A DNA stretch of 64,000 bases from Escherichia coli (GTDB lineage Bacteria > Pseudomonadota > Gammaproteobacteria > Enterobacterales > Enterobacteriaceae), in NCBI RefSeq assembly GCF_002854065.1, contig NZ_CP024147.1, one strand, 5' to 3'. The position numbers and the translations under genes were made by a program. The first letter of the stretch is position 1. Each line of letters starts with the position of its first letter. The notes below the pieces were generated by a model. It saw only the letters and a program-made list of their open reading frames with translations. It was not told the DNA's origin and did not search any database. Of this stretch, positions 4,608 to 17,451 are shown one piece after another.

Positions 4608-5336
4608 TTAATCACTGAATACCAACGAATCTAATACACCTTGTCCACTATGAACTCCTCCTTCAACTGACTCTGCTGATTTGCTACGGATCAAATACCC
4701 AGCAAAACTGTGATCAGCGCTAGATGCATTGTTACCTATCTGGACGGAGAACATTCCTAGTTCGCTGACCAGATCAGTAACCTGATATAACTCCCCTTTA
4801 CGGACAACCAGAGAAGGTGTAGCTCGCGGGACAGGATGTATCCGACGCATGAACGACCAGGATTGATATTGCAGCGGGTCAAGTCTTGCCAGTTTTAACT
4901 GGATATCAGAGCCAAACAGACAATGCCCACCCCCTTCGCCCTGGTTTTTGAGAACCCATGAATCAGAAGGAGACTCTTTTACAATGCTGATTGTATCAGG
5001 GCTAACAGGAAGCATTTCGCCCAACACCATTTTTATGATATCAACCTCTTCCGGCTTCAGTCCAAAAGCAATCAGTTCATCGCACCCCAAATGAGAGAGC
5101 AACATTTGTACTCGCTTACTTGTCGCAAGTTGCTGAGCGACTGTTGCATTCACCGCAACTCGGTGCTGCTCAATCAATACTCGCGTGGCCATTAGCGTCT
5201 GGCAACACTCCTTCTCATTGAGACTGGCGGCTTCATAATCTGAGTATTGATATCCGGCACGTAAGTAAACAGAAGTAGTATGGGTGTATGAACTTGTCAT
5301 TGTTTTGACATTTATCAAATATATTCGATTATGCAT
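4608..5336 (-). CDS. Hypothetical protein (242 aa; alternative start at 5300 gives 230 aa), divergent from arsR; contains vicinal Cys pair (KECCQT)
   Basis: Only long ORF covering this interval; convergent with the ATPase gene; no recognised family; weak RBS at both candidate starts. Confidence 0.45.
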   Translation of the reverse strand: MHNRIYLINVKTMTSSYTHTTSVYLRAGYQYSDYEAASLNEKECCQTLMATRVLIEQHRVAVNATVAQQLATSKRVQMLLSHLGCDELIAFGLKPEEVDIIKMVLGEMLPVSPDTISIVKESPSDSWVLKNQGEGGGHCLFGSDIQLKLARLDPLQYQSWSFMRRIHPVPRATPSLVVRKGELYQVTDLVSELGMFSVQIGNNASSADHSFAGYLIRSKSAESVEGGVHSGQGVLDSLVFSD

Positions 5337-5393: not shown

Positions 5394-5747
5394 ATGATGT
5401 CGCTTACTTCCCTACAACTCTTTAAGAATCTGTCTGATGAAACACGTCTGGGTATTGTTCTCATACTCAGAACTATGGGGGAGTTGTGCGTATGTGATCT
5501 TTGCACTGCACTTGATCAATCACAGCCTAAGATCTCCCGGCATCTGGCTATGTTGCGAGAAAGTGGGATTTTGCTTGATAGTAAACACGGTAAATGGGTT
5601 CATTACCGGTTATCCCCACACATTCCTTCATGGGCTGCACAGATTATTGAGCAGGCCTGGTTAAGCCAACAGGACGATCTTCAGGCCATCGCCCGTAAAC
5701 TGGCTTCAGTCAACTGCACTAACAGCAGTAAGGCTATTTGTATTTAA
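5394..5747 (+). CDS. arsR: Arsenical resistance operon repressor ArsR (R773-type, ELCVCDLC As(III) site)
   Basis: 117 aa; near-identity to recalled R773 ArsR (…LQLFKNLSDETRLGIVL…ELCVCDLC…). Confidence 0.92.
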   Translation: MMSLTSLQLFKNLSDETRLGIVLILRTMGELCVCDLCTALDQSQPKISRHLAMLRESGILLDSKHGKWVHYRLSPHIPSWAAQIIEQAWLSQQDDLQAIARKLASVNCTNSSKAICI

Positions 5748-5793
5748 AAATTTGCCTGAATATATATGATTTCCCACATATGAGGTATTGAGA

Positions 5794-6156
5794 ATGAAAA
5801 CGCTAGCGGTATTCGACCCGGCAATGTGTTGTAGCACCGGTGTCTGCGGTACTGATGTCGATCAGGCTCTGGTTGATTTTTCCGCGGATGTGCAATGGCT
5901 GAAACAACGAGGTGTTCAGGTAGATCGTTTCAATCTGGCACAGCAACCGATGAGCTTTGTCCAGAACGAGAAAGTTAAAGCATTTATTGAGGCTTCTGGT
6001 GCGGAAGGGCTGCCATTACTGTTACTGGATGGCGAAACAGTGATGGCCGGGCGTTATCCGAAACGGGCTGAACTTGCACGGTGGTTTGGAATTCCGCTGG
6101 AGAAAGTAGGATTAGCGCCTTCAGGCTGCTGCGGTGGTAATACTTCTTGTTGTTAA
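5794..6156 (+). CDS. arsD: Arsenic metallochaperone/secondary regulator ArsD
   Basis: MKTLAVFDPAMCCSTGVCG…GCCGGNTSCC; start set at ATG 5794 after RBS TGAGG. Confidence 0.92.
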   Translation: MKTLAVFDPAMCCSTGVCGTDVDQALVDFSADVQWLKQRGVQVDRFNLAQQPMSFVQNEKVKAFIEASGAEGLPLLLLDGETVMAGRYPKRAELARWFGIPLEKVGLAPSGCCGGNTSCC

Positions 6157-6173
6157 GTATGTCAGGAGGACAT

Positions 6174-7925
6174 ATGAAATTCTTACAGAACATCCCCCCT
6201 TATCTGTTTTTTACTGGTAAAGGAGGCGTTGGTAAAACCTCTATTTCCTGCGCCACGGCGATCCGTCTGGCAGAACAGGGTAAACGAGTGCTGCTGGTCA
6301 GTACCGATCCGGCCTCAAACGTAGGCCAGGTCTTTGGCCAGGTTATTGGCAATACTATTCAGCCAATAGCCACTGTTCCTGGATTGTCGGCACTTGAGAT
6401 TGATCCTCAGGCCGCTGCGCAACAGTACCGGGCCAGAATCGTTGACCCTATTAAAGGTGTCCTGCCTGATGACGTCGTTAGCAGCATCAACGAACAACTG
6501 TCTGGTGCATGCACAACAGAGATTGCGGCTTTTGATGAGTTTACCGGATTACTGACAGACGCCTCTTTGCTGACCCAGTTTGACCATATCATCTTTGATA
6601 CCGCGCCAACCGGCCATACTATTCGCCTTCTCCAGTTGCCAGGCGCCTGGAGCAGCTTTATTGACAGCAATCCCGAGGGCGCATCCTGCCTCGGCCCGAT
6701 GGCGGGGCTGGAAAAACAGCGTGAACAGTATGCCCATGCCGTTGAAGCACTGTCCGACCCAGCGCGTACCCGCCTGGTTTTAGTTGCCAGACTGCAAAAA
6801 TCCACCCTGCAAGAAGTCGCCCGAACTCATTTAGAACTCGCCGCAATTGGCCTTAAAAATCAGTACTTGGTCATTAATGGCGTTCTGCCCAAAACTGAAG
6901 CGGCAAACGATACACTGGCTGCGGCTATATGGGACCGTGAACAGGAGGCGCTGGCCAATCTTCCTTCTGACCTTTCCGGTCTGCCAACTGACACGTTATT
7001 CCTCCAACCACTCAATATGGTCGGCGTGGCTGCATTAAGTGGGCTTCTCTCCTCTCAGCCTGAGGCAGCATCATCTTCTGAAGAATACATTCAGCAACGA
7101 CCTGAAATTCCGTCGCTCTCAGCGTTAGTCGATGATATTGCCCGTAACGAACATGGTCTGATAATGCTAATGGGCAAAGGCGGTGTGGGGAAAACCACGA
7201 TGGCGGCAGCCATTGCCGTCAGACTGGCCGAAATGGGATTTGATGTCCATCTGACCACCTCAGATCCAGCAGCACACCTCAGCACAACCCTGAACGGTAG
7301 CCTTAACAATCTGCAGGTCAGTAGAATCGATCCTCACGAGGAAACAGAACGCTATCGTCAGCATGTTCTTGATACCAAGGGTGGAGAACTGGATGAAGCG
7401 GGTAAACGCCTGCTGGAAGAAGATTTACGCTCTCCTTGTACCGAAGAGATTGCGGTCTTCCAGGCCTTTTCACGGGTGATTCGTGAAGCGGGTAAGCGCT
7501 TCGTGGTCATGGATACGGCACCCACCGGGCATACCCTACTGCTGCTGGATGCCACCGGGGCGTATCACCGCGAAATTGCTAAGAAAATGGGCGATAAAGG
7601 CCATTTCACCACGCCAATGATGCAGCTTCAGGACCCGGAGCGAACCAAAGTGTTACTGGTCACGCTGCCGGAAACCACGCCCGTGCTTGAGGCGGCAAAT
7701 TTGCAGGCCGACCTTGAACGCGCAGGGATTCATCCCTGGGGCTGGATTATCAATAACAGCCTTTCCATTGCGGATACCCGTTCGCCGCTGCTTCGTCTGC
7801 GGGCGCAACAGGAACTTCCGCAGATCGAGAGTGTTAAACTCCAGCATGCCAGTCGCGTAGCTCTTGTTCCTGTACTGGCGTCAGAACCGACCGGCATCGA
7901 CAAACTCAAACAACTCGCTGGTTAA
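6174..7925 (+). CDS. arsA: Arsenite-translocating ATPase ArsA (two nucleotide-binding domains)
   Basis: Two GKGGVGKT P-loops and two DTAPTGHT motifs; start at MKFLQN after RBS AGGAGG. Confidence 0.92.
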
Positions 7926-7972
7926 TTATTGTCATTACTCGGGGCAGCTTTGCTGCCCTTTCGGGAGGTTAT

Positions 7973-9262
7973 ATGTTACTGGCAGGAGCCATTTTTATCC
8001 TGACCATCGTGTTGGTTATCTGGCAGCCAAAGGGATTAGGCATTGGCTGGAGCGCCACGCTGGGTGCCGTACTGGCTCTGGCATCGGGTGTGATTCATAT
8101 CGCCGATATTCCGGTGGTGTGGAATATCGTCTGGAACGCCACGGCCACCTTTATTGCCGTCATTATCATCAGTCTGTTGCTGGATGAGTCCGGCTTTTTT
8201 GAATGGGCTGCACTGCACGTTTCCCGCTGGGGCAATGGGCGTGGACGTCTGCTATTTACCTATATTGTTCTGCTCGGCGCGGCGGTGGCGGCATTGTTTG
8301 CCAACGATGGCGCGGCGTTAATTCTGACGCCGATCGTTATCGCCATGCTACTGGCGCTGGGATTCAGTAAAAGCACCACGCTGGCTTTCGTGATGGCCGC
8401 AGGGTTTATTGCCGATACCGCCAGCTTGCCACTTATCGTATCGAACCTGGTCAATATCGTTTCGGCTGATTTCTTCAAACTGGGATTCACGGAGTATGCG
8501 TCAGTTATGGTGCCGGTGGATATTGCCGCCATTGTCGCCACGCTGGTGATGCTGCATCTTTTTTTCCGCAAAGATATCCCGCCCACTTATGAGCTGGCGC
8601 GACTGAAAGAACCCGCAAAAGCCATCAAAGATCCTGCGACGTTCAGAACCGGCTGGGTTGTGCTCCTCCTTCTGCTGGTCGGTTTTTTTGTCCTTGAGCC
8701 GATGGGGATCCCTGTGAGTGCGATTGCGGCAGTGGGGGCGGCAATCCTGTTTGCGGTGGCCAAAAAAGGTCATGGTATTAACACCGGTAAAGTGCTGCGC
8801 GGCGCGCCCTGGCAGATCGTGATCTTCTCACTGGGGATGTATCTGGTGGTATACGGGTTGCGTAACGCCGGTCTGACGGATTATCTCTCTGACGTGCTGA
8901 ACGTACTGGCAGATAAAGGACTGTGGGCCGCGACGCTGGGGACAGGATTCCTGACTGCATTCCTCTCTTCTATCATGAACAATATGCCGACCGTACTGGT
9001 TGGCGCACTGTCGATTGATGGCAGCACCGCGACCGGCGTTATCAAAGAAGCGATGATTTATGCCAACGTCATTGGCTGCGATCTGGGGCCGAAAATCACC
9101 CCTATTGGTAGCCTGGCGACACTGCTCTGGCTGCACGTGCTTTCACAGAAGAATATGACAATCTCGTGGGGATACTACTTCCGCACCGGGATTATCATGA
9201 CCCTGCCTGTGCTGTTTGTAACGCTGGCTGCGCTGGCGCTACGTCTCTCTGTCACTTTGTAA
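7973..9262 (+). CDS. arsB: Arsenite/antimonite efflux permease ArsB
   Basis: 429-aa polytopic membrane protein, C-terminus …[12 protein letters not shown] as in ArsB. Confidence 0.92.
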
Positions 9263-9274
9263 TGAGATTCTGAT

Positions 9275-9700
9275 ATGAGCAACATCACTATTTATCACAA
9301 CCCAGCCTGCGGCACCTCGCGTAATACGCTGGAGATGATCCGCAACAGCGGTACCGAGCCGACCATTATTCTTTACCTTGAGAACCCACCTTCGAGGGAT
9401 GAATTGGTCAAACTCATTGCCGATATGGGTATTTCAGTACGAGCGCTGCTGCGTAAAAACGTTGAGCCTTACGAGCAACTGGGTCTTGCAGAAGATAAAT
9501 TTACTGACGATCAGCTCATCGACTTTATGTTGCAACACCCAATTCTGATTAACCGTCCGATCGTGGTTACGCCGCTGGGAACCAGACTGTGCCGTCCTTC
9601 TGAAGTGGTTCTGGATATCCTGCAGGATGCGCAGAAAGGGGCTTTCGCTAAGGAAGACGGTGAAAAGGTCGTTGATGAAGCAGGAAAACGGCTGAAATAA
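9275..9700 (+). CDS. arsC: Glutaredoxin-dependent arsenate reductase ArsC
   Basis: 141 aa, HNPACGTSRNT catalytic Cys motif. Confidence 0.92.
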   Translation: MSNITIYHNPACGTSRNTLEMIRNSGTEPTIILYLENPPSRDELVKLIADMGISVRALLRKNVEPYEQLGLAEDKFTDDQLIDFMLQHPILINRPIVVTPLGTRLCRPSEVVLDILQDAQKGAFAKEDGEKVVDEAGKRLK

Positions 9701-9702
9701 AT

Positions 9703-9728
9703 AATAAGGGGGCGAATGCCCCCTTATT
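9703..9728. terminator. Hairpin AATAAGGGGGC-GAAT-GCCCCCTTATT between convergent arsC and GNAT gene (bidirectional terminator candidate)
   Basis: GC-rich 8-bp stem with flanking A/T runs. Confidence 0.6.
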
Positions 9729-9734
9729 CGTACC

Positions 9735-10271
9735 TCAGAGCATCATGCCTGAATCCGATGGTAACGTGCTGTTCCCTTCGCCCAGATTTCGTTGCAGCAA
9801 CACTGTGTCAAGCCAACGACCATGCTTGAAGCCAATATTTTTCAGCGTACCAATCTCAGTAAATCCAACCTGCTGATGGACTTTCAGCGAACCTTGATTA
9901 TTGCTATCGCCGACAATAGCAATCATCTGCCGATAGCCGTGAGTTTCTGCCCAGGCAATGACGTAGCGCAGCAACGCTTTTCCTGTCCCCTGACGCTGTG
10001 CGTCCGGGTGAATATAAATCGAATCTTCGAGAGTGTGGCGGTAGGCGTAGCGTTCACGGTAACGAGTGAGATAACAATACCCGATAACCTTTTCTTCCTC
10101 TAACGCGACAACCCACGGTAGCGCCTGATTGCGGATCTTTTTCAGGCGGGTAAGCATCTCGTGGGTATCCGGAGGTTCAGTTTCAAAGCTGGCGGTACCG
10201 TGAAGAACATGATGGGCGTAGATATCGCGTATAGCGGGGATGTGCTTTTCTTCTGCGTTAACGATTTTCAT
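9735..10271 (-). CDS. GNAT acetyltransferase of the phosphinothricin-acetyltransferase family (ArsN1-like arsinothricin N-acetyltransferase candidate)
   Basis: 178 aa; resembles E. coli MnaT/PAT proteins (…IYAHHVLHGTASFETEPP…YIHPDAQRQGTGKALL…); positioned in an ars island. Confidence 0.7.
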   Translation of the reverse strand: MKIVNAEEKHIPAIRDIYAHHVLHGTASFETEPPDTHEMLTRLKKIRNQALPWVVALEEEKVIGYCYLTRYRERYAYRHTLEDSIYIHPDAQRQGTGKALLRYVIAWAETHGYRQMIAIVGDSNNQGSLKVHQQVGFTEIGTLKNIGFKHGRWLDTVLLQRNLGEGNSTLPSDSGMML

Positions 10272-10435
10272 TGTTCTGTTCCCGTTGGCATCTTTTTCAA
10301 GGTTACTTGAAAATCCTGAGGAAAGGTAAATACAAAAGCTTATGACCCAATAAGCAGGCTAATCTTCAATCCCATCTTTTGTTTTCATTCATGCAGGGAG
10401 ACAAATATGTGCTTCCAGTATCCTTATTTTTTATG

Positions 10436-10479
10436 TTACCTTTTCCGTTATGTCTAAAATGACATAACGGAAAAGGTAA
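10436..10479. promoter_or_regulatory. 44-bp perfect palindrome (19-bp arms TTACCTTTTCCGTTATGTC / GACATAACGGAAAAGGTAA, 6-bp spacer) ending 4 nt before the tauE-like start codon
   Basis: Seen directly; right arm contains the putative RBS AAAGG. Confidence 0.5.
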
Positions 10480-10483
10480 ACCC

Positions 10484-11308
10484 ATGTCCTCAGAATCAAA
10501 ACGGAACGGAAAAGGTTTTTTATCAGGCACGTTAATCGGTGCTTTAGGCGGCTTAATTGGCCTCGGTGGCGCTGAGTTCCGCCTTCCCGTCCTGATGGGT
10601 AGTTTCAAAATGCCGACGCTTGAAGCGGTTATTTTTAACAAAGCGATGAGCCTTACTGTTGTCGCTGTTGCTTTGATATTCCGCACAAAATCCATCGCCG
10701 TCGACCAGCTGTTTGCTCATCTTGATATTGTCATCAATTTGCTGGCCGGGAGCCTTATAGGTGCATGGTGGGCAGCAGGAAGAGCCATAAAAATGTCCCG
10801 TATTTGGCTGGACAGAACCATTCTGCTCCTGCTTGTTATCCTGTCATTCGTCATGTTTTCAGAAGCATTGATGCCTCTGCATGATAGCTCCGCTGGATTA
10901 TTCCAGCCCGGAATCGCGACCATTATTGCGGGTGTTATTGCGGGTGTTATTGCGGGTTTCTTCATCGGGAATGTTGCTGCTTTGCTGGGTGTTGCAGGGG
11001 GAGAGCTCCTGATACCAACTATCGTTATCCTTTTTGGGGCTGACATTAAACTGGCTGGCAGTTTGTCACTCATGATCAGTTTACCGACGATGATTGTGGG
11101 GTTCTCTCGCTACACTAATGCAGATGCTTTCCAGATCCTGAGAAAAGAGAAAAAACTTTTTGTGTGGATGGTCATCGGTTCCGTTATAGGTGCCGCTATT
11201 GGGGGCCTTATGCTCGGTATGTTCCCGGTAAGAGTACTTATGACTCTGTTAGGCGCGGTACTTCTTATTTCCGCGATCAAAACCTTTAAGCATACCCGGC
11301 AAAGATAA
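10484..11308 (+). CDS. TauE/SafE (TSUP/DUF81) family anion exporter-like membrane protein
   Basis: 274 aa, two glycine-rich hydrophobic halves (GALGGLIGLGGAEFRLP…; …GVAGGELLIPTIVILFG). Confidence 0.7.
   Translation: MSSESKRNGKGFLSGTLIGALGGLIGLGGAEFRLPVLMGSFKMPTLEAVIFNKAMSLTVVAVALIFRTKSIAVDQLFAHLDIVINLLAGSLIGAWWAAGRAIKMSRIWLDRTILLLLVILSFVMFSEALMPLHDSSAGLFQPGIATIIAGVIAGVIAGFFIGNVAALLGVAGGELLIPTIVILFGADIKLAGSLSLMISLPTMIVGFSRYTNADAFQILRKEKKLFVWMVIGSVIGAAIGGLMLGMFPVRVLMTLLGAVLLISAIKTFKHTRQR
10925..10960 (+). repeat. 12-bp tandem repeat ATTGCGGGTGTT x3 (last copy degenerate) inside the tauE-like gene, encoding (IAGV)2-IAGF
   Basis: Seen directly. Confidence 0.6.
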
Positions 11309-11370
11309 TAGCCGTTTACGCTTTGGACTATTCCGCATTACAGAGAAAATGATTTCGAAAAGGTATCAGA

Positions 11371-11739
11371 ATGAAAAAGAATCCCCTTAAATCAAACTTA
11401 ATCTTAGTCAGACCGAGGATCTATATTAACGACAACATCTCGCTGGGGCCGGGGAAGGTTGACCTTTTAAGGGCGATTGATGGCTTTCACTCTCTTTCTG
11501 CGGCAGCTAAAGATTTGGGGATACCTTATAAAAAAGCATGGCTCTTAATTGACACTTTGAATAAAGGGATTGGTCAGCCAGTTGTAACCACTTCCACTGG
11601 TGGTAACAAGGGCGGTGGTACAGTTCTGACGCCATTGGGGCGTAGCCTGCTGATCTGGTATGACCAGGCCGAGGCCCACCTCAATGAGCAATCTCAGCAA
11701 CAGTTAATCGAACTTGAAAAGATTCTTTTTGGAAAATGA
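11371..11739 (+). CDS. ModE N-terminal-domain-like winged-helix regulator (single domain, no Mop/TOBE domains)
   Basis: 122 aa; …AAKDLGIPYKKAWLLIDTLNKGIGQPVVTTSTGGNKGGGTVLTPLGRSLLIWY resembles ModE N-terminal HTH with the GG(K)GGGG loop. Confidence 0.6.
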   Translation: MKKNPLKSNLILVRPRIYINDNISLGPGKVDLLRAIDGFHSLSAAAKDLGIPYKKAWLLIDTLNKGIGQPVVTTSTGGNKGGGTVLTPLGRSLLIWYDQAEAHLNEQSQQQLIELEKILFGK

Positions 11740-11784
11740 CAGAGACCTTTGTTATCCATCGGGAAAATAGAGTGACAGCAATGC

Positions 11785-11810
11785 ATGAAGGGGGCTAATG
11801 CCCCCTTCAT
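11785..11810. terminator. Hairpin ATGAAGGGGGC-TAAT-GCCCCCTTCAT between convergent modE-like gene and arsA2; 19/20 identical to the hairpin at 9703-9728
   Basis: Seen directly. Confidence 0.6.
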
Positions 11811-11812
11811 TA

Positions 11813-13570
11813 TTACTTCGCCATTTCTTCCAGCAGGTCAATACCAACCGGCTCTTCGCTCTGTAGCGCTGTTAATGCAATACGCTTTGCATACTGCTCT
11901 TCCACATCAGAGATGAGAGGCAGCTCGCGGTTAGCTCTGGTCTTCAGGAAAGGTGAAGACGGCTCAGCAGCTGCCAGGCTGTTATTCACAACCCATGCCC
12001 ACGGCTCAATGCCAGCCCGACGCAGATCCTGCTGCAGGTTAGCGGCTTCCAGTACAGGTGTCGTTTCGGCAAGCGTCACGATAATCACCTTCGTCTTCTC
12101 CGGGTCCTGCAATTGCATCATTGGCGTCATCACATGGTCATGTGTTTGCCCCATCTGGCGCACCATTTCCCGGTGATAGGCTCCAGTCGCATCCAGTAGC
12201 AGAAGTGTGTGACCCGTTGGCGCGGTGTCCATAATGACAAAATGATCGTCTGCCTCTTTGATTATCCGCGAGAATGCCTGGAAGACGGCGATCTCTTCAG
12301 TACATGGTGAGCGGAGATCTTCTTCCAGCACCGCCAGCCCCTCAGCGTCTAATCCTTTGCCCTGATTCTCCAGTACAAAACGGCGATAACGCTCTGTCTC
12401 CACCTTCGGATCGATACGGCTGACCTGCAGATTTGGCAGCGAGCCATCCAGCGTGTAAGACAGATGTGCTGCCGGATCGGACGTGGTCAGATGGACTTTA
12501 TGACCGCGTTTTGCCAGCGATACCGCGACCGATGCTGCAACAGTCGTTTTGCCCACGCCGCCTTTCCCCATCGTCATTACCAGCCCTTTGCCTGTCAGAC
12601 TGAGTTCATCCACTAACGAGGAAAGTTTCGGTAAATCCAGAGCATTTAGCGTTGTATTGGAGAGAGACAGTGGCGCTTTGCTCTCTGTTAATAACTCTCG
12701 CAGGGCTTCCAGACCGACCAGATTAAATGGCTTCAGAGACAGCTGCGAGCGGGGAAGATTAACCAGATTATCAGGCATTGCCTGTAATGCTTTTTCTTCC
12801 CGAGCCAGAATACTTTGCGCCAGTGGATCATTTTCACCGGCAAACGGTGGCAGCACACCATTAATGGCAAGGTGTTGATGCTGCAAACCAATAGCAGAAA
12901 GCTCATCGTGCGTATGAGAAACCTCTTTCAGCGTTGAAGCCTGAGCTCGGGCAACCAGCACTAAGCGTGTGAGAGCTGCGTCGGACAGCGCTTTAACCGC
13001 ATCGGAGTACTGGTGCTGTTGTTTCTCAAGCCCTACCAGAGGTCCAAGGTTTGCAGCGGCATCAGGGTTCGCTTCGAGATAACCGCTCCAGGCTCCCGGC
13101 AATTCAAGCATGCGGATGGTGTGACCGGTTGGCGCGGTATCAAATACGATATGGTCATATTTTCCCCGCAGCTCATGATTGGTCAGCAGACCAGTAAACT
13201 CATCAAACGCAGCGATTTCCGTGGTGCATGAGCCGGAAAGCTGCTCTTCAATGCTGCTGACCACATCGGCTGGCATCAGCCCGCGAACAGGGTCGAGCAC
13301 ACGGTCACGATAGGCTTGCGCTGCAGCCATCGGATCAACTTCCATCGCGGCAAGATTTTCTACAGTACTGATATCTGTGATTCGGTGGCCGATAGTCTGG
13401 CTAAATACCTGGCCGACATTGGAAGCCGGATCGGTACTCACCAGAAGCGTTCTCTTACCCTGATCGGCCAGCCATACTGCAGTAGCACAGGCCAGGGATG
13501 TCTTACCCACTCCACCTTTACCAGTGAAGAAGATGAACGGGGGAATGTCTTTTAAAAATGGCATATTCAT
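11813..13570 (-). CDS. arsA: Second arsenite-stimulated ATPase ArsA (divergent paralogue)
   Basis: Two GKGGVGKT / DTAPTGHT sets; start MNMPFLKD with RBS GAGGAG. Confidence 0.85.
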   Translation of the reverse strand: MNMPFLKDIPPFIFFTGKGGVGKTSLACATAVWLADQGKRTLLVSTDPASNVGQVFSQTIGHRITDISTVENLAAMEVDPMAAAQAYRDRVLDPVRGLMPADVVSSIEEQLSGSCTTEIAAFDEFTGLLTNHELRGKYDHIVFDTAPTGHTIRMLELPGAWSGYLEANPDAAANLGPLVGLEKQQHQYSDAVKALSDAALTRLVLVARAQASTLKEVSHTHDELSAIGLQHQHLAINGVLPPFAGENDPLAQSILAREEKALQAMPDNLVNLPRSQLSLKPFNLVGLEALRELLTESKAPLSLSNTTLNALDLPKLSSLVDELSLTGKGLVMTMGKGGVGKTTVAASVAVSLAKRGHKVHLTTSDPAAHLSYTLDGSLPNLQVSRIDPKVETERYRRFVLENQGKGLDAEGLAVLEEDLRSPCTEEIAVFQAFSRIIKEADDHFVIMDTAPTGHTLLLLDATGAYHREMVRQMGQTHDHVMTPMMQLQDPEKTKVIIVTLAETTPVLEAANLQQDLRRAGIEPWAWVVNNSLAAAEPSSPFLKTRANRELPLISDVEEQYAKRIALTALQSEEPVGIDLLEEMAK

Positions 13571-13590
13571 CAGTGATAGCTCCTCTGGAA

Positions 13591-13953
13591 TTAAGGCATA
13601 CGTGGAATGCTGCAGCAACGCGGTTGCGTACTGTCTTCACTCCAGTCCTGAGTTAGCGGAATATCTGCCCAACGGGCGATATCTTCACGAGTCGGCAGTT
13701 TGCCTGCCATCACCAGCTTGCCGTCGAGCAAGGTGACAGGGAGGGATTCCATCCCTGATGTGTTCATAAACTCTTTGATTACAGGGGTATTCAGGAACTG
13801 CTGCGGGTTTTTCGCAAGGCTGTAGCGCTGAATATCAACGCCATTCTTTTTCGCCCATTCGGCGCTGGCATTCCATTTGACGGCTTCGTCGCTCACCACA
13901 ACGCTGCTGGTTGCGCAGCAGCCTGCTGCTTCAAAGATCTCAATTTTTGACAT
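13591..13953 (-). CDS. arsD: ArsD-like metallochaperone (divergent; only the N-terminal CC pair conserved)
   Basis: 120 aa, MSKIEIFEAAGCCATS…, immediately upstream of arsA2. Confidence 0.7.
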   Translation of the reverse strand: MSKIEIFEAAGCCATSSVVVSDEAVKWNASAEWAKKNGVDIQRYSLAKNPQQFLNTPVIKEFMNTSGMESLPVTLLDGKLVMAGKLPTREDIARWADIPLTQDWSEDSTQPRCCSIPRMP

Positions 13954-14028
13954 GGATTGTTTACCTCAGTGTTTAGTCATTTGGCTTTACACTGAGGTAA
14001 ACGAAGGTGGTGGGAAAAAGATGCGCGA

Positions 14029-14574
14029 TTAATTCATTTTTTTGTGGCAGCAGACAAAAGATGTGTCATCCGCCTCAATCTGGCAGAGTTCTGTCATCGT
14101 CTCTTTCAGGTGTTTTCTGGCCCGAAGTAGTCGGGATTTAAACGCTGTAAGCGTGATTCCCCATTCATCGGCCAGGGACTGCTGGGGACGCCGGTTAAGG
14201 TCGGACTCTTCAATCAACCACCGCTCATCTTCGGGTAAAGCCTGTAATGTTTCAGGCAGGCAAATATCCAGTGTTGAGATTGCATCAAGGGATGCGTCTG
14301 TTAATAGGGCATCTTCTTCCAGCTCAACAAACGCCCTGGTGGTTCGGTACTCATCAATCAGCAGATTCCTTGCTACCCGATACAACCAGGCTCGCGGATT
14401 TTCCATCTCACAAAAAATGTCTGAATGGGCTCGGGCACGCAGGAAAAGGTCTTGCAGAAGGTCTGCTGCTTTTTCGCTATCGCCTGTCTTCGATATCAGA
14501 AAGCGAGAAAATTCGCCTTCATGCTGCCGCCAGAACACGCTCATACAGCTGTTGAATGCTGTTATGTCACTCAT
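14029..14574 (-). CDS. ECF (sigma-70 family, group IV) sigma factor with C-terminal Cys-containing tail (…ELCQIEADDTSFVCCHKKMN)
   Basis: Region 2 (…NPRAWLYRVARNLLIDEYR) and region 4 (…SLADEWGITLTAFKSRLLRARKHL) motifs; ATG 14574 with RBS GAAGG overlapping arsH stop codon. Confidence 0.75.
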   Translation of the reverse strand: MSDITAFNSCMSVFWRQHEGEFSRFLISKTGDSEKAADLLQDLFLRARAHSDIFCEMENPRAWLYRVARNLLIDEYRTTRAFVELEEDALLTDASLDAISTLDICLPETLQALPEDERWLIEESDLNRRPQQSLADEWGITLTAFKSRLLRARKHLKETMTELCQIEADDTSFVCCHKKMN

Positions 14575-14582
14575 ACTAACCT

Positions 14583-15293
14583 TCAAATTTTGCTCTGATT
14601 AACCCGTCGGGAAAGTTCTTCTGCAGACTCTTTTCGTTCACTGTAGCGATCGACAAGATAGGCAGAATTTGCCCGGGTCAACAATGTAAACTTCATCAAT
14701 TCTTCCATCACATCCACGATGCGGTCGTAATATGGTGACGGTTTCATACGTCCATCGTCATCAAACTCCTGCCAGGCTTTTGCTACCGAGGACTGGTTCG
14801 GAATAGTGATCATTCTCATCCAACGACCAAGCACGCGCATCTGGTTGACTGTGTTGAATGACTGGGAACCTCCACACACTTGCATAACAGCCAGAGTTTT
14901 TCCCTGAGAAGGACGAACAGCACCTTCAGATAATGGTATCCAGTCAATTTGTGCCTTCATAATACCAGTCATCGCTCCGTGTCGTTCCGGAGAGCACCAC
15001 ACCATTCCTTCAGACCAGCGGACCAGTTCACGCAACTCCATAACTTTTGGATGTGACTCCGGTGCATCATCAGGAAGTGGAAGGCCAGATGGATTAAAAA
15101 TGCGGACTTCTGCGCCCATCGCAGTTAACAACCGACCAGCTTCCTCTGTCGCCAGTCGACTGTATGAGCGCTCACGAACTGAGCCATAAAGCATTAGTAT
15201 ACGAGGGGGGTGAGATATTGTCGGTATCCCCATTTTTTGCTCAGTTATTGCAGCATCAAATAAATCAGGAACTATATTATTTAGCTTATTCAT
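14583..15293 (-). CDS. arsH: ArsH, NADPH-dependent FMN reductase (organoarsenical oxidase)
   Basis: 236 aa; …[18 protein letters not shown]… flavodoxin-like motif typical of ArsH. Confidence 0.85.
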
Positions 15294-15391
15294 TTTTTAT
15301 TTTCCCTATAGATTCGGGATCTTAGTAGGATGGATTCAGACGGTTCGATGCAGCTTTCGTCAATCATGACAGTTATGAGTTTTTCGGTTAC

Positions 15392-15715
15392 TTATCCATT
15401 TTTGCCAGCGGGTTCCGTAACATCTGTTTTACTGTTTACACAGCACTCTTCACGTAAGAATTCGATGATAGCTTCCAGTATTTCGTATTGAGAGACGCAC
15501 ATGAGCGTTCGACTCTCCCGGTTTTGTGTGACGAGTCCTACTGATACTAAGGCTGAAATATGATGACTTAACGTTGATGAGGGAATGCCAAGCTGCTTTT
15601 GCAATTCACCTACAGGCAAACCTTGTTCTCCAGCTTTTACAAGATGTTTGAATATGAACAAACGGGTCGGGTGACCCAGCTCTTTTAGTGCTTTAGCTAC
15701 TTCTTCCAATTGCAT
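15392..15715 (-). CDS. arsR: ArsR/SmtB family repressor, C-terminal vicinal-Cys type (…REECCVNSK…)
   Basis: 107 aa; HTH …LPVGELQKQLGIPSSTLSHHISALVSVGLV…; lacks the CVC site of R773 ArsR. Confidence 0.8.
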   Translation of the reverse strand: MQLEEVAKALKELGHPTRLFIFKHLVKAGEQGLPVGELQKQLGIPSSTLSHHISALVSVGLVTQNRESRTLMCVSQYEILEAIIEFLREECCVNSKTDVTEPAGKNG

Positions 15716-15735
15716 GTGACAACCCTCTGTCTAAT

Positions 15736-15798
15736 GATATTTCGATAATACCAGAAATATCTTGACCAGAATTATATTTCGATTATTCTAGAAATGTA
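15736..15798. promoter_or_regulatory. Two tandem imperfect palindromic operator-like sites (GATATTTCGATAATACCAGAAATATC at 15736-15761 and TATATTTCGATTATTCTAGAAATGTA at 15773-15798) in the arsR2/arsP divergent intergenic region
   Basis: Seen directly; candidate ArsR2 binding sites. Confidence 0.45.
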
Positions 15799-15820
15799 GA
15801 TTTTGTCAAGAGGGTTTAGT

Positions 15821-16954
15821 ATGAATAGTTGGATTTCTATGCTGCAAGATGCCGCAGAGATGTTTTTGTTTTTGGCCGTCGAGCTATCTTTGCTGTTTAT
15901 TGTCATCAGTGCCGGTGTGAGCCTGATAAGGCAAAAGGTCCCGGACCATAAAATCCAGCAATTGTTGGGGGCGAAAAAAGGAAAAGGCTACCTGCTGGCC
16001 TCGTTGTTGGGAGCCGTTACCCCTTTCTGTAGTTGCTCAACAATTCCAATGCTACGAGGGTTGTTGTCGGCGAAAGCAGGGTTTGGTCCGACACTCACTT
16101 TTTTGTTTGTTTCACCGTTGCTTAATCCCATTATCGTGGGGTTAATGTGGGTTACCTTTGGCTGGAAAGTAACTTTGTTGTACGCGATCATCGCTGCCGG
16201 TGTCTCAGTCCTTGCCAGTATCGTATTGGATTTACTAGGATTTGAACGTCATATTGTTGATCACAAAAACTCAGCATCAAGTGGTTGCGCCACCAAATGT
16301 GATGATTCCGAAGCTTCGGTAAAAACGTCGGCGGGTTCCAGTTGTTGCAGCACTAGCTCGACTCAATTGCCTGTAAAAACGAGTTGCTGTACTTCATCAG
16401 CGAACCCCATAATTAACTTAAGGACGGTAAAGAACGAGCAGAACGTATCAACGTGTTGTTCATCAATATCATCTGAACAACCAGCTGTTAGCTGTTGCAG
16501 CAGCGAGAATCTGGGCAATGTGAATCTCACACCGAATACCACCTCTGGCCCAATAAAGTTAGCTATGAAAGATGCCTTACAGCAGTTTAAGGATGTTCTG
16601 CCTTATCTTTTGTTAGGTGTATTAATAGGTTCATTTATTTATGGCTTTATCCCTTCAGAGTGGATTGCAGCTCATGCCGGAGCAGATAATCCCTTAGCCA
16701 TACCGCTGAGTGCAGTTGTTGGTATTCCGTTGTATATACGCGCAGAGGCAGTGATACCACTTGCATCAGTGCTGATGACTAAAGGAATGGGCCTGGGGGC
16801 ATTAATGGCCTTGATAATCGGTAGTGCTGGAGCGAGTTTGACAGAAGTAATACTGCTTAAATCAATGTTCAGAATGCCTATGATAGTCGCTTTTCTGACA
16901 GTTATCTTAGGTATGGCAATTCTAATGGGTTATCTGACTCAATTCTTGTTTTAA
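15821..16954 (+). CDS. arsP: ArsP-type organoarsenical efflux permease with Cys/Ser-rich loop
   Basis: TPFCSCS motif recalled for ArsP; start ATG 15821 after RBS GAGGG; central loop has four CC pairs. Confidence 0.8.
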   Translation: MNSWISMLQDAAEMFLFLAVELSLLFIVISAGVSLIRQKVPDHKIQQLLGAKKGKGYLLASLLGAVTPFCSCSTIPMLRGLLSAKAGFGPTLTFLFVSPLLNPIIVGLMWVTFGWKVTLLYAIIAAGVSVLASIVLDLLGFERHIVDHKNSASSGCATKCDDSEASVKTSAGSSCCSTSSTQLPVKTSCCTSSANPIINLRTVKNEQNVSTCCSSISSEQPAVSCCSSENLGNVNLTPNTTSGPIKLAMKDALQQFKDVLPYLLLGVLIGSFIYGFIPSEWIAAHAGADNPLAIPLSAVVGIPLYIRAEAVIPLASVLMTKGMGLGALMALIIGSAGASLTEVILLKSMFRMPMIVAFLTVILGMAILMGYLTQFLF

Positions 16955-16965
16955 AGCATTACAAC

Positions 16966-16997
16966 AAGGGTCTTCTGCCTCAAGATCGAAGACCCTT
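16966..16997. terminator. Hairpin AAGGGTCTTC-12 nt-GAAGACCCTT downstream of arsP (weak T-tract; terminator-like)
   Basis: Seen directly. Confidence 0.35.
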
Positions 16998-17451
16998 CAG
17001 TTTCACTAGCAGATTGCCAGTTCTAGTAGCCAATTAAGAGAGGAGTGGATTGTTCTTTGGGTATTCGCAAACCCAGCAACGGTAAAATCAGGACTGACCC
17101 AAAAATTCAACGAGAATCCACCCCTTTAAATCTTTGATCCCTTCCCGGAAGCAGTATACGGCATATCTGAGTTAATCGTTTCTATTGGAGCTTCAGGGAA
17201 GCGACTCTTAATAGAAATCTGTTAATACTGTCCAAAACTGATTCCCTTTATCCCGAGCTGAACCGTAACAAAACCATCTCTCTTTGAGATCTCACATACT
17301 CAACGAACATAAGCCATTGCTGCTACATACAATTTTACGAAGCATATCACCTTAGTTGATCATGAAATCCATCCTGAATACAGATTGATTTTTATACTAT
17401 ATTAAGTGAGATATGATCTTCTTTAGAGTTGAGCTAAAAGGAGTCGAGGCG

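Follow-up and report, generated by a model that had tools for sequence, protein, structure and literature searches.

What does an ArsA ATPase serve when its own operon encodes no pump? The question is raised by a stretch of 64,000 nucleotides from Escherichia coli (contig NZ_CP024147.1 of assembly GCF_002854065.1; hereafter the window), in which a second arsenic resistance cluster reads arsR2-arsH-sigma-arsD2-arsA2 on the minus strand, with the permease gene arsP divergent from arsR2. ArsA, ArsD and ArsB form the textbook ATP-driven metalloid pump, and the three-cysteine site is central to its current mechanism (PNAS 2025). The puzzle of a pump-less ArsA has already been published (Castillo & Saier 2010; Vazquez 2022). 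Two features are most distinctive of the cluster: the ATPase and its chaperone have both lost the third cysteine of their metalloid sites, and arsD2-arsA2 are preceded by an internal promoter that is predicted to depend on the sigma factor encoded just upstream. In the literature that could be searched, we found no account of the paired cysteine loss, the ArsA2 clade, the sigma promoter or an arsenic-responsive ECF238 member. The reading developed here, to which we give slightly less than an even chance, is that ArsD2 and ArsA2 would form a sigma-controlled, pump-agnostic unit that captures arsenicals with two thiols and delivers them to exporters encoded in trans.

A second ars cluster without a pump gene

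Gene identities were taken from open reading frames and from the RefSeq annotation of a near-identical chromosomal island of E. coli CUWW06, which matches the window at 100.0% identity by megablast. Direct comparison of the two shows a single nucleotide polymorphism at 13164 (in arsA2) and a 1-bp indel at about 15298 (in the arsH-arsR2 spacer), and one residue of the ArsP loop is S in one and L in the other (window and RefSeq CUWW06). The double ars cluster is also present on the IncI1 plasmid R64 (94.6% identity) and on Citrobacter plasmids (96%). The gene calls agree with the original prediction in the order of the minus-strand genes, in the lack of arsB or acr3 among them, and in the divergence of arsP (ATG at 15821, plus strand) from arsR2; ATG starts replace the upstream TTG starts for arsA2 (13570), sigma (14574) and arsP (15821). 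The features on which the argument depends are as follows.

11813-13570, minus strand: arsA2, two-domain ArsA ATPase (TIGR04291, 944.3 bits; cutoff 650)
13591-13953, minus strand: arsD2, ArsD-family chaperone (NF033727, 84.4 bits; cutoff 90)
13959-14002, minus strand: 14-bp stem-loop in the sigma-arsD2 spacer
13997-14024, minus strand: promoter-like motif of the extracytoplasmic function (ECF) type, in the 75-bp sigma-arsD2 spacer
14029-14574, minus strand: ECF sigma factor, SigZ/CorE-like, 181 amino acids (aa)
14583-15293, minus strand: arsH, organoarsenical oxidase / NADPH-FMN reductase (TIGR02690, 403.6 bits; cutoff 292.25)
15392-15715, minus strand: arsR2, ArsR/SmtB repressor (NF033788, 63 bits; cutoff 55)
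15716-15820, both directions: arsR2-arsP divergent control region
15821-16954, plus strand: arsP, ArsP_1 permease of 377 aa (Pfam PF03773, 1e-54, residues 10-375)
5394-9700, plus strand: arsR1-arsD1-arsA1-arsB-arsC (arsRDABC), converging on the arsA2 unit
7973-9262, plus strand: arsB, within the arsRDABC operon; the sole ArsB/Acr3 gene in the window

A tblastn search over the 64 kb found no Acr3 and no second ArsB, so the second cluster does lack a pump of either kind. The arsB gene is 2.5 kb from the 3' end of arsA2, rather than the 7 kb first given, and a TauE/TSUP membrane protein gene stands about 500 bp past that same end; ArsP is therefore not the only transporter nearby, as had been supposed. 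Nor is the missing pump as odd as it had seemed. Among 68 ordinary arsA loci, about 30 lack a pump gene both in the 1.5 kb downstream of arsA on its strand and in the 4 kb upstream, and in about 20 of these 30 arsA is not closely followed by any membrane-protein gene. An arsD-arsA unit without a pump is not unusual in the sample.

Paired loss of the third cysteine

What sets ArsA2 and ArsD2 apart is their thiol chemistry. Like the ArsA of the R773 and R46 arsRDABC operons, ArsA2 consists of two homologous halves, each with an intact Walker A motif (GKGGVGKT) and an intact DTAPTGHT motif, it keeps C113 and C422, and its arsD lies directly upstream; it is 63% identical to ArsA1, and ArsD2 is 40% identical to ArsD1. 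Unlike those systems, the unit has no pump gene, and the metalloid site of ArsA2 reads C113/N172/C422 in place of three cysteines. ArsD2 keeps C12-C13, but a 2-residue deletion has removed C18 of the triad, and only one (PRCCSIPRMP) of the two C-terminal CC pairs of the R773-type protein is left; its score falls below the NF033727 cutoff, and RefSeq labels it only ‘ArsD family protein’. The unit shares the absence of ArsB and a flexible choice of partner with ArsA-Acr3 operons, with the pump-less arsADRC of Halobacterium pNRC100 and with the ‘promiscuous ArsA’ of Castillo & Saier, but the proteins of ArsA-Acr3 operons and of pump-less arsADRC keep all three cysteines.

The two losses covary. 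The C-N-C pattern of ArsA2 recurs in each of the 19 clade loci read at that position, and C18 is missing wherever arsD2 lies on the contig of a clade locus. Ordinary ArsA proteins in the same scan are C/C/C in 68 of 68 loci, every ArsD beside them is C/C/C as well, and 36 of 48 distant ArsA cluster representatives have CCC. In a profile search, ArsD proteins fall cleanly into two types, GCCATSS, which lacks C18, and CCSTGVCG. The former, two-cysteine type extends to Pseudomonas aeruginosa, Comamonas, Photorhabdus, Serratia, Cedecea and Dongshaea, and its ArsA partners also have N172 and join the ArsA2 clade with 100% bootstrap in custom neighbour-joining trees, where the clade is sister to R773-type ArsA (81-82% bootstrap). 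Close ArsA2 relatives (76-97% identity) were confined to Enterobacterales in a scan of one genome per species, and searching with ArsD2 brought in the deeper lineages. No sampled lineage in an ars context other than the N172/delta-C18 clade lacks the third cysteines. The few distant representatives without C172 (P0087 and P0088; L and P numbers are our handles for compared loci and proteins) occur in contexts unrelated to arsenic and were uninformative. A derivation of ArsD2 from the thioredoxin-like gene that follows arsP was dropped, the single comparison yielding only a weak local match (E = 0.001).

In the characterised ATPase, As(III) is held by all three cysteines; a C173A mutant binds it more weakly and is still activated (PMC12415280). 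A large natural clade that has dropped the same ligand from chaperone and ATPase thus offers a ready test of the role of the third thiol and of the tunability of ArsA toward methylated or aromatic arsenicals.

Could the second cluster instead be a redundant, decaying copy of arsDA with no function of its own? Some relatives look that way: arsA2 is split by a 1-bp frameshift in common pKPN3-like plasmids of Klebsiella pneumoniae, and degraded or hybrid forms exist, such as the locus L010 and fragments that join sigma to ArsA. Against this, the ratio of nonsynonymous to synonymous substitution (dN/dS) is 0.07 for arsA2, 0.05 for arsD2 and 0.10-0.16 for sigma, with synonymous sites saturated across the lineages compared. 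These ratios (0.05-0.10 across lineages) point to strong purifying selection on arsD2 and arsA2 and hence to functional genes. All catalytic motifs of ArsA2 are intact in the window, the clade is old enough to span Beta- and Gammaproteobacteria, and the cysteine losses are specific and paired rather than random. Decay is scarcely credible on this evidence.

The frameshift in the pKPN3-like plasmids falls near residue 367, in the linker between the ATPase halves (L094, about 2148-2154), and arsA2 is intact in a minority of plasmids, for example pLAP2_020035 (L090 7744-9501). Many database entries named ‘ArsA’ (about 100-170 aa; P0276, P0285-P0298) carry some 38 residues of the sigma N-terminus at 87% identity; such entries, for instance from Yersinia enterocolitica, have the appearance of deletion hybrids of the module, and so has the degraded stretch of arsR, arsH and sigma in L010 (8270-9530).

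A sigma factor with a predicted promoter in the arsD2 leader

The sigma gene begins 8 nt past arsH and encodes Sigma70_r2 and r4_2 domains. Its only neighbours are arsH and arsD2, neither of which is an anti-sigma gene. The best NCBIfam match is SigZ, at 132 bits below the equivalog cutoff of 168.65. SigZ, CorE and CorE2 belong to ECF238, a group of metal-activated factors with a short Cys-rich tail and no anti-sigma (PMC7826278, PMC4937300). The ars sigma resembles these factors (formerly ECF44/ECF24) in its sigma2/sigma4 core, short Cys-rich tail, lack of an adjacent anti-sigma and metal(loid) resistance context. It has six conserved cysteines: one N-terminal, C55, C105 in the linker, C164, and C175-C176 followed by H, so that the tail, C164-x10-C175C176-H, is of the Cys-rich ECF238 kind. 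Even in homologues of 35-40% identity, C55, C105 and C164 remain invariant and the CC pair almost so. Unlike in CorE, CorE2 and SigZ, the linker has a single invariant cysteine, C105, in place of CxC, and the tail has three cysteines rather than six; the predicted inducer, too, would be different, namely an arsenical. With an ars-linked sigma, the range of metal-sensing ECF factors would take in metalloids, and the predicted promoter is open to direct test.

That promoter is suggested by the 75-bp spacer between sigma and arsD2, where GCATCTTTTT-N11-TCGTTTAC stands directly after the sigma stop codon. Written as GCATC(C/T)TTT-N11-TCGTTTAC, the motif is unique in the window, was found in none of 100 shuffles, and occurs once per related locus, or twice where acr3 has been inserted. 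It follows the sigma stop codon in at least four lineages. The same motif with equal spacing also follows sigma homologues of only 36-37% identity (L038, L098-L100 and the second sigma of L100), where it precedes arsP; the order in an Oxalobacteraceae metagenome-assembled genome is arsH-sigma-motif-arsP-thioredoxin-like. Because it is conserved behind such distant homologues, the motif is read as the probable cognate promoter of the ECF sigma. Expression of arsD2-arsA2 would then run through the sigma and the internal promoter and not, as in R773 and R46, directly through ArsR. Autoregulation was considered and rejected: the motif was not found upstream of sigma in minimal loci.

Overlapping the motif is a stem-loop of -22.4 kcal/mol (z = -6.8). 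Its 3' arm holds the arsD2 Shine-Dalgarno sequence (GAGG) and its 5' arm overlaps the -10-like element; a consensus fold over 10 lineages contains 12 pairs, of which two show compensatory changes. An Rfam scan of 9600-17400 assigned the stem-loop to no family, returning only sub-threshold miRNA-like matches on hairpins. The stem-loop may mask the ribosome-binding site of arsD2: transcripts begun at the motif would be translatable and those reading through from upstream would not. Published RNA sequencing of an uninduced pKPN3-like plasmid, in which values drop from 47 (sigma) to 9 (arsD2) and 4 (arsA2), fits such a model (PMC6286996).

In minimal sigma-arsD2-arsA2/arsRBC loci, a tRNA 3'-end-like sequence, GGTTCGAATCC...CCACCA, lies just upstream of sigma (L088 1-200, L087 1-30, L014 1-20). 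Part of it is repeated nearby; if these are attachment-site repeats, the unit belongs to a tRNA-integrated island.

The arsR2-arsP module

Is ArsP the partner of ArsA2? ArsP gives a full-length match to ArsP_1, with the TPFCSCS motif that all homologues compared possess, and has a Ser/Cys-rich loop with a CxxxC and four vicinal CC pairs. This cytoplasmic loop (window 16280-16560) is a low-complexity stretch of Ser, Thr and Cys in which the CxxxC is accompanied by S-CC-S repeats; the number of repeats varies, with four here, two in the 345-aa form on plasmid pESI (L092 12033-13070) and two or three in Aeromonas. ArsR2 was correctly placed among the C-terminal CC type: EECC is read in the sequence, and the C-terminus, ...EECCVNSKTD, has the CC pair and lacks the third cysteine at +6, as in SpArsR. 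An ArsR of that kind (SpArsR) responds to MAs(III), trivalent methylarsenite, and not to As(III) (PMC11868830). The ligand of ArsR2 is uncertain because one further cysteine, at residue 73, is conserved. In relatives, the L004-type ArsR (EECCSGTNDC) has the third cysteine and the ArsR of L083, L089 and L090 has two cysteines; the idea that arsP-less relatives generally have a three-cysteine ArsR was rejected, as it is true of the L004 type only.

The spacer between arsR2 and arsP contains divergent sigma-70-like promoters (a promoter scan matches 11 of 12 positions on the minus strand and 9 of 12 on the plus strand) and two 24-bp imperfect palindromes, at 15737-15760 and 15774-15797, which are candidate ArsR2 operators. 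The arrangement recalls the SpArsR-arsP/arsH pathway of Shewanella putrefaciens 200, and the ArsP of Campylobacter, in the CC pair without a third cysteine, the divergent arsP with TPFCSCS, and ArsH. It differs in the insertion of about 100 residues with four CC pairs in ArsP, in the extra cysteine 73 of ArsR2, and in that the ArsR2 operon also drives sigma and ArsD/ArsA, an element foreign to the known organoarsenical pathway.

The region consists of two separable modules, arsR2-arsP and arsH-sigma-arsD2-arsA2. ArsR2 is 89% identical to the arsP-linked ArsR of Aeromonas and about 60% identical to the ArsR heading arsP-less relatives, a contrast indicating that the arsH-sigma-arsD2-arsA2 unit of this lineage received arsR2-arsP as a graft. 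At 80% query coverage or more, 616 plasmids (401 from E. coli, 185 from Salmonella, 33 from Klebsiella) carry arsR2-arsP by itself, often isolated by insertion sequence (IS) elements and in one example cut by IS1 directly after arsR2. At the same coverage, sigma-arsD2-arsA2 is found on 1224 plasmids, most of them from Klebsiella and most without arsP, with 1281 Klebsiella records among all matches; the pKPN3-like form of the module has no arsP. Plasmids with sigma-arsD2-arsA2 and no arsP number more than 1000, and those with arsR2-arsP and no arsA2 several hundred.

A phenotype is available for one plasmid of the group. On pESI of Salmonella Infantis, and on one E. coli plasmid (L093), IS26/IS1 have removed arsRDABC and left the block from arsP to arsA2 intact. 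Vazquez et al. (2022) noted that the pESI host has arsA and neither arsB nor acr3 in its genome, and left the pESI permease unrecognised as arsP (PMC9219668). In their comparison of S. Infantis pESI with LT2, the minimum inhibitory concentrations (MICs) were 8 versus 0.25 for phenylarsine oxide (32-fold), 128 versus 64 for arsenite (2-fold) and 512-2048 versus 128 for arsenate (PMC9219668).

These observations bear on the proposal that ArsA2 and ArsD2 are dedicated energisers of ArsP, so that ArsP would export methylarsenite and aromatic arsenicals at the expense of ATP. A proposal of Castillo & Saier (2010) has ArsA energise ArsP besides ArsB and Acr3; they also described an ArsA-ArsP cluster in E. 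coli, Yersinia and Aeromonas with an ArsP of about 400 aa and a 100-residue loop (PMC2963123). The pairing would be in keeping with the control region that arsP shares with the operon, with the match between two-thiol chemistry and ArsP substrates, with arsP being driven directly by the same sigma family in L038, L098-L100 and behind the second L100 sigma, and with the block kept on pESI and L093 and the 32-fold MIC for phenylarsine oxide. Yet four of five Enterobacterales lineages, L101-L105 and more than 1000 Klebsiella plasmids have no arsP; arsR2-arsP persists by itself on hundreds of others; and its ArsR2 identities mark it as a graft. The ArsP of Campylobacter, moreover, functions without an ATPase. 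A dedicated ArsA2-ArsP pump is therefore unlikely.

Which pump, if any?

If not ArsP, could ArsB be the partner? A convergent arsB operon is present at all Enterobacterales loci (L003-L014, L083, L084, L087-L091, L094). Serratia fonticola (L083) and a metagenomic contig (L089) have arsR-arsH-sigma-arsD2-arsA2 converging on arsRDABC, and Cedecea neteri and a metagenomic lineage (L014, L087/L088) have just sigma-arsD2-arsA2 converging on arsRBC, so that ArsA2 is the sole ArsA, and ArsB the sole pump, there. The original prediction had offered either ArsB acting in trans or a non-canonical partner, to be judged by a neighbourhood survey; the survey speaks against ArsP as a dedicated partner and for ArsB as a constant convergent neighbour, though in Enterobacterales only. 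Outside that order the picture changes. A mobile element of Comamonas and Pseudomonas, the basal lineage of the clade, carries arsR, an ArsO-like monooxygenase gene and then PadR-arsD2-arsA2-ArsM-like methyltransferase-MIP (major intrinsic protein) channel, with no ArsB, Acr3 or ArsP on the element. Its ArsM-like gene (64% identity), PadR and MIP are retained beside the sigma form in L089, and ArsH and ArsN-like GNAT acetyltransferases are further recurring neighbours of the clade, as is ArsP in the window. In L101, the PadR directly upstream of arsD2 (7498-7878) has a vicinal CC pair (STQGCCAPTEG) and may sense arsenicals; a nearby ArsR (5782-6147) ends in PYCCPANG.

A different account of the missing pump is that the module once carried acr3, lost here by deletion, so that ArsA2 is an orphan whose proper partner is Acr3. 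Related islands with a pump in cis, which had been named as the finding that would overturn the prediction, do exist. In L084, L085 and the Citrobacter plasmid L091, sigma and arsD2 are separated by the gene for an intact Acr3 (TIGR00832, 349 bits), and the flanks of the island are 90-98% identical to the window; Dongshaea marina (L105) has arsD2-arsA2-acr3, with acr3 downstream of arsA2. A copy of the spacer motif stands on either side of the acr3 segment between sigma and arsD2, and recombination between the two copies would delete acr3 cleanly. That this happened here is nonetheless improbable. From mid-sigma to the end of arsA2 the acr3 islands are only 63-80% identical to the window, in contrast to their flanks, and this part is therefore a recombinant patch. 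The acr3 lineage is nested among acr3-less lineages in the ArsA tree (96-100% bootstrap), the basal lineage is pump-free, and the 75-bp spacer is conserved in all other lineages; the acr3 form was matched on one of 72,556 plasmids, versus the 1224 without it. Finally, acr3 occupies different positions in two non-sister lineages, which argues for independent gains and not for a loss in the window, one gain per lineage being more parsimonious than at least three losses.

Perhaps, then, no pump is involved at all, and ArsD2 and ArsA2 act in the cytosol, capturing two-coordinate arsenicals for ArsH, for ArsM-like enzymes or for the Cys-rich sigma. ArsD2 and ArsA2 are the sole constant partners across the clade, the basal operon has its methyltransferase and MIP channel and no carrier, L089 keeps arsM-like, PadR and MIP beside the module, and ArsH is adjacent in most Enterobacterales lineages. 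We consider this quite unlikely: every characterised two-domain ArsA works with an exporter (PMC2963123, PMC12415280), acr3 has been recruited in cis twice, arsB always adjoins in Enterobacterales, and delivery from ArsA to an enzyme is without precedent. Together, the neighbourhoods indicate that the ArsA2 clade has no fixed pump: nothing but the pairing of ArsD2 with ArsA2 is stable, the exporters differ, and enzymes for organoarsenicals are a recurring presence.

A model for capture and delivery

A model in which a pump-agnostic two-thiol unit serves exporters in trans could accommodate these features. One module, arsR2-arsP, would consist of a two-cysteine ArsR that represses itself and a divergent ArsP permease for trivalent organoarsenicals; the other, arsH-sigma-arsD2-arsA2, would be an accessory pump-less unit, placed here behind the ArsR2-controlled promoter. 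An arsenical would release ArsR2 and allow arsR2-arsH-sigma to be transcribed. The CorE/SigZ-like sigma, with its Cys-rich tail and no anti-sigma, would probably be activated directly by metalloid and would then initiate transcription at the conserved motif of the 75-bp spacer. RNA begun there would be missing the 5' arm of the hairpin, and read-through RNA would hide the arsD2 ribosome-binding site, so that active sigma would yield ArsD2 and ArsA2, a two-thiol capture and delivery ATPase. Such chemistry would suit MAs(III) and aryl-As(III), or As(III) at lower affinity. The cargo would be handed to exporters in trans, for which the nearby candidates are ArsB (2.5 kb away, the constant neighbour in Enterobacterales) and ArsP (organoarsenical-capable).

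The earlier suggestion that the gene content points to organoarsenicals rather than inorganic arsenic gains support from the two-cysteine sites in ArsR2, ArsD2 and ArsA2, from linkage across the clade to ArsH, ArsM-like, ArsO-like and ArsN-like genes, and from the pESI MICs (32-fold versus 2-fold). Taken to its limit, it would make ArsD2-ArsA2 the first ArsA system specialised for two-coordinate trivalent organoarsenicals (methylarsenite and aryl-As(III)), coupling ATP-driven capture to exit through ArsP or another route and switched on by the first arsenical-sensing sigma, with a promoter GCATCC-N15-CGTC/T and a hairpin that ties arsD2 translation to that promoter. We regard this bolder version as possible, with the balance of probability clearly against it; if it were true, more than 1000 clinical and food-chain plasmids would hold an unrecognised organoarsenical defence.

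Several observations weigh against the delivery model or its organoarsenical form. ArsB and Acr3 are carriers of As(III) and Sb(III), so an organoarsenical cargo fits badly where arsP is missing. Where acr3 lies in cis the cargo is presumably As(III), and the two-thiol site may therefore not mean organoarsenical specificity. The ArsD of R773 needs C18 for its chaperone activity, and ArsD2 may thus work otherwise than proposed. The tail of the sigma is modelled by AlphaFold2 (AF2) at low confidence (predicted local distance difference test, pLDDT, below 50). The arsA2 frameshift in a common K. pneumoniae plasmid lineage implies that the module is dispensable there. The pESI strains are not isogenic, and ArsH and ArsP alone could explain their MICs.

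The module is carried on more than 1200 sequenced plasmids, among them IncFIB(K)/FII plasmids of K. pneumoniae, the IncI1 plasmid R64 and pESI of poultry-associated S. Infantis. With such a spread, its true substrate bears on the co-selection of multidrug-resistance plasmids by arsenical feed additives and herbicides.

A split terminator and the flanks of the island

The remaining features of the region lie mostly beyond and between the two converging operons.

4608-5336, minus strand: half-length glutathione-synthetase-like gene, divergent from arsR1
9703-9728 (after arsC) and 11785-11810 (after the arsA2 stop): GC-rich hairpins
9735-10271, minus strand: ArsN1-like GNAT
10484-11308, plus strand: TauE/TSUP membrane protein gene
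11371-11739, plus strand: ModE-N-like winged helix-turn-helix
17413 onward: integrase

Does the operon end at a terminator, as had been proposed? A hairpin does stand directly after the arsA2 stop, at 11785-11810, but no U-tract follows it on the arsA2 strand in the window. In relatives, the arsA2 and arsC stops are usually separated by a shared hairpin alone, a clean bidirectional terminator; in L004 (11760-11795) a single hairpin and then TTTTTATTT lie between the two stop codons. The window instead has a 2-kb segment of arsN-like, TauE and ModE-like genes flanked by near-identical hairpins, AAGGGGGC-N4-GCCCCCTT. With two hairpin copies here versus the single terminator of relatives, the segment looks like cargo inserted into the terminator. 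It is present only in the window, R64 and the L008 and L084 lineages. The TauE/TSUP protein was considered as a partner of ArsA2 and rejected, the segment being an insertion that split the shared terminator in few lineages only.

The native chromosomal ars locus (23787-24853) is a remnant, in which dinQ is followed by an arsC cut by an overlapping IS1; the ArsC match ends at residue 123 of 141, where IS1 begins. The native arsR and arsB are gone, so that the island ArsB is the only one in the window. The gene at 4608-5336 encodes 242 aa that correspond to no more than the C-terminal half of a glutathione synthetase of eukaryote type (TIGR01986, 103 bits; cutoff 330), and in Aeromonas allosaccharophila (L056 14154-15593) a full-length glutathione synthetase of 479 aa is encoded between the ars sigma and an arsP-like gene.

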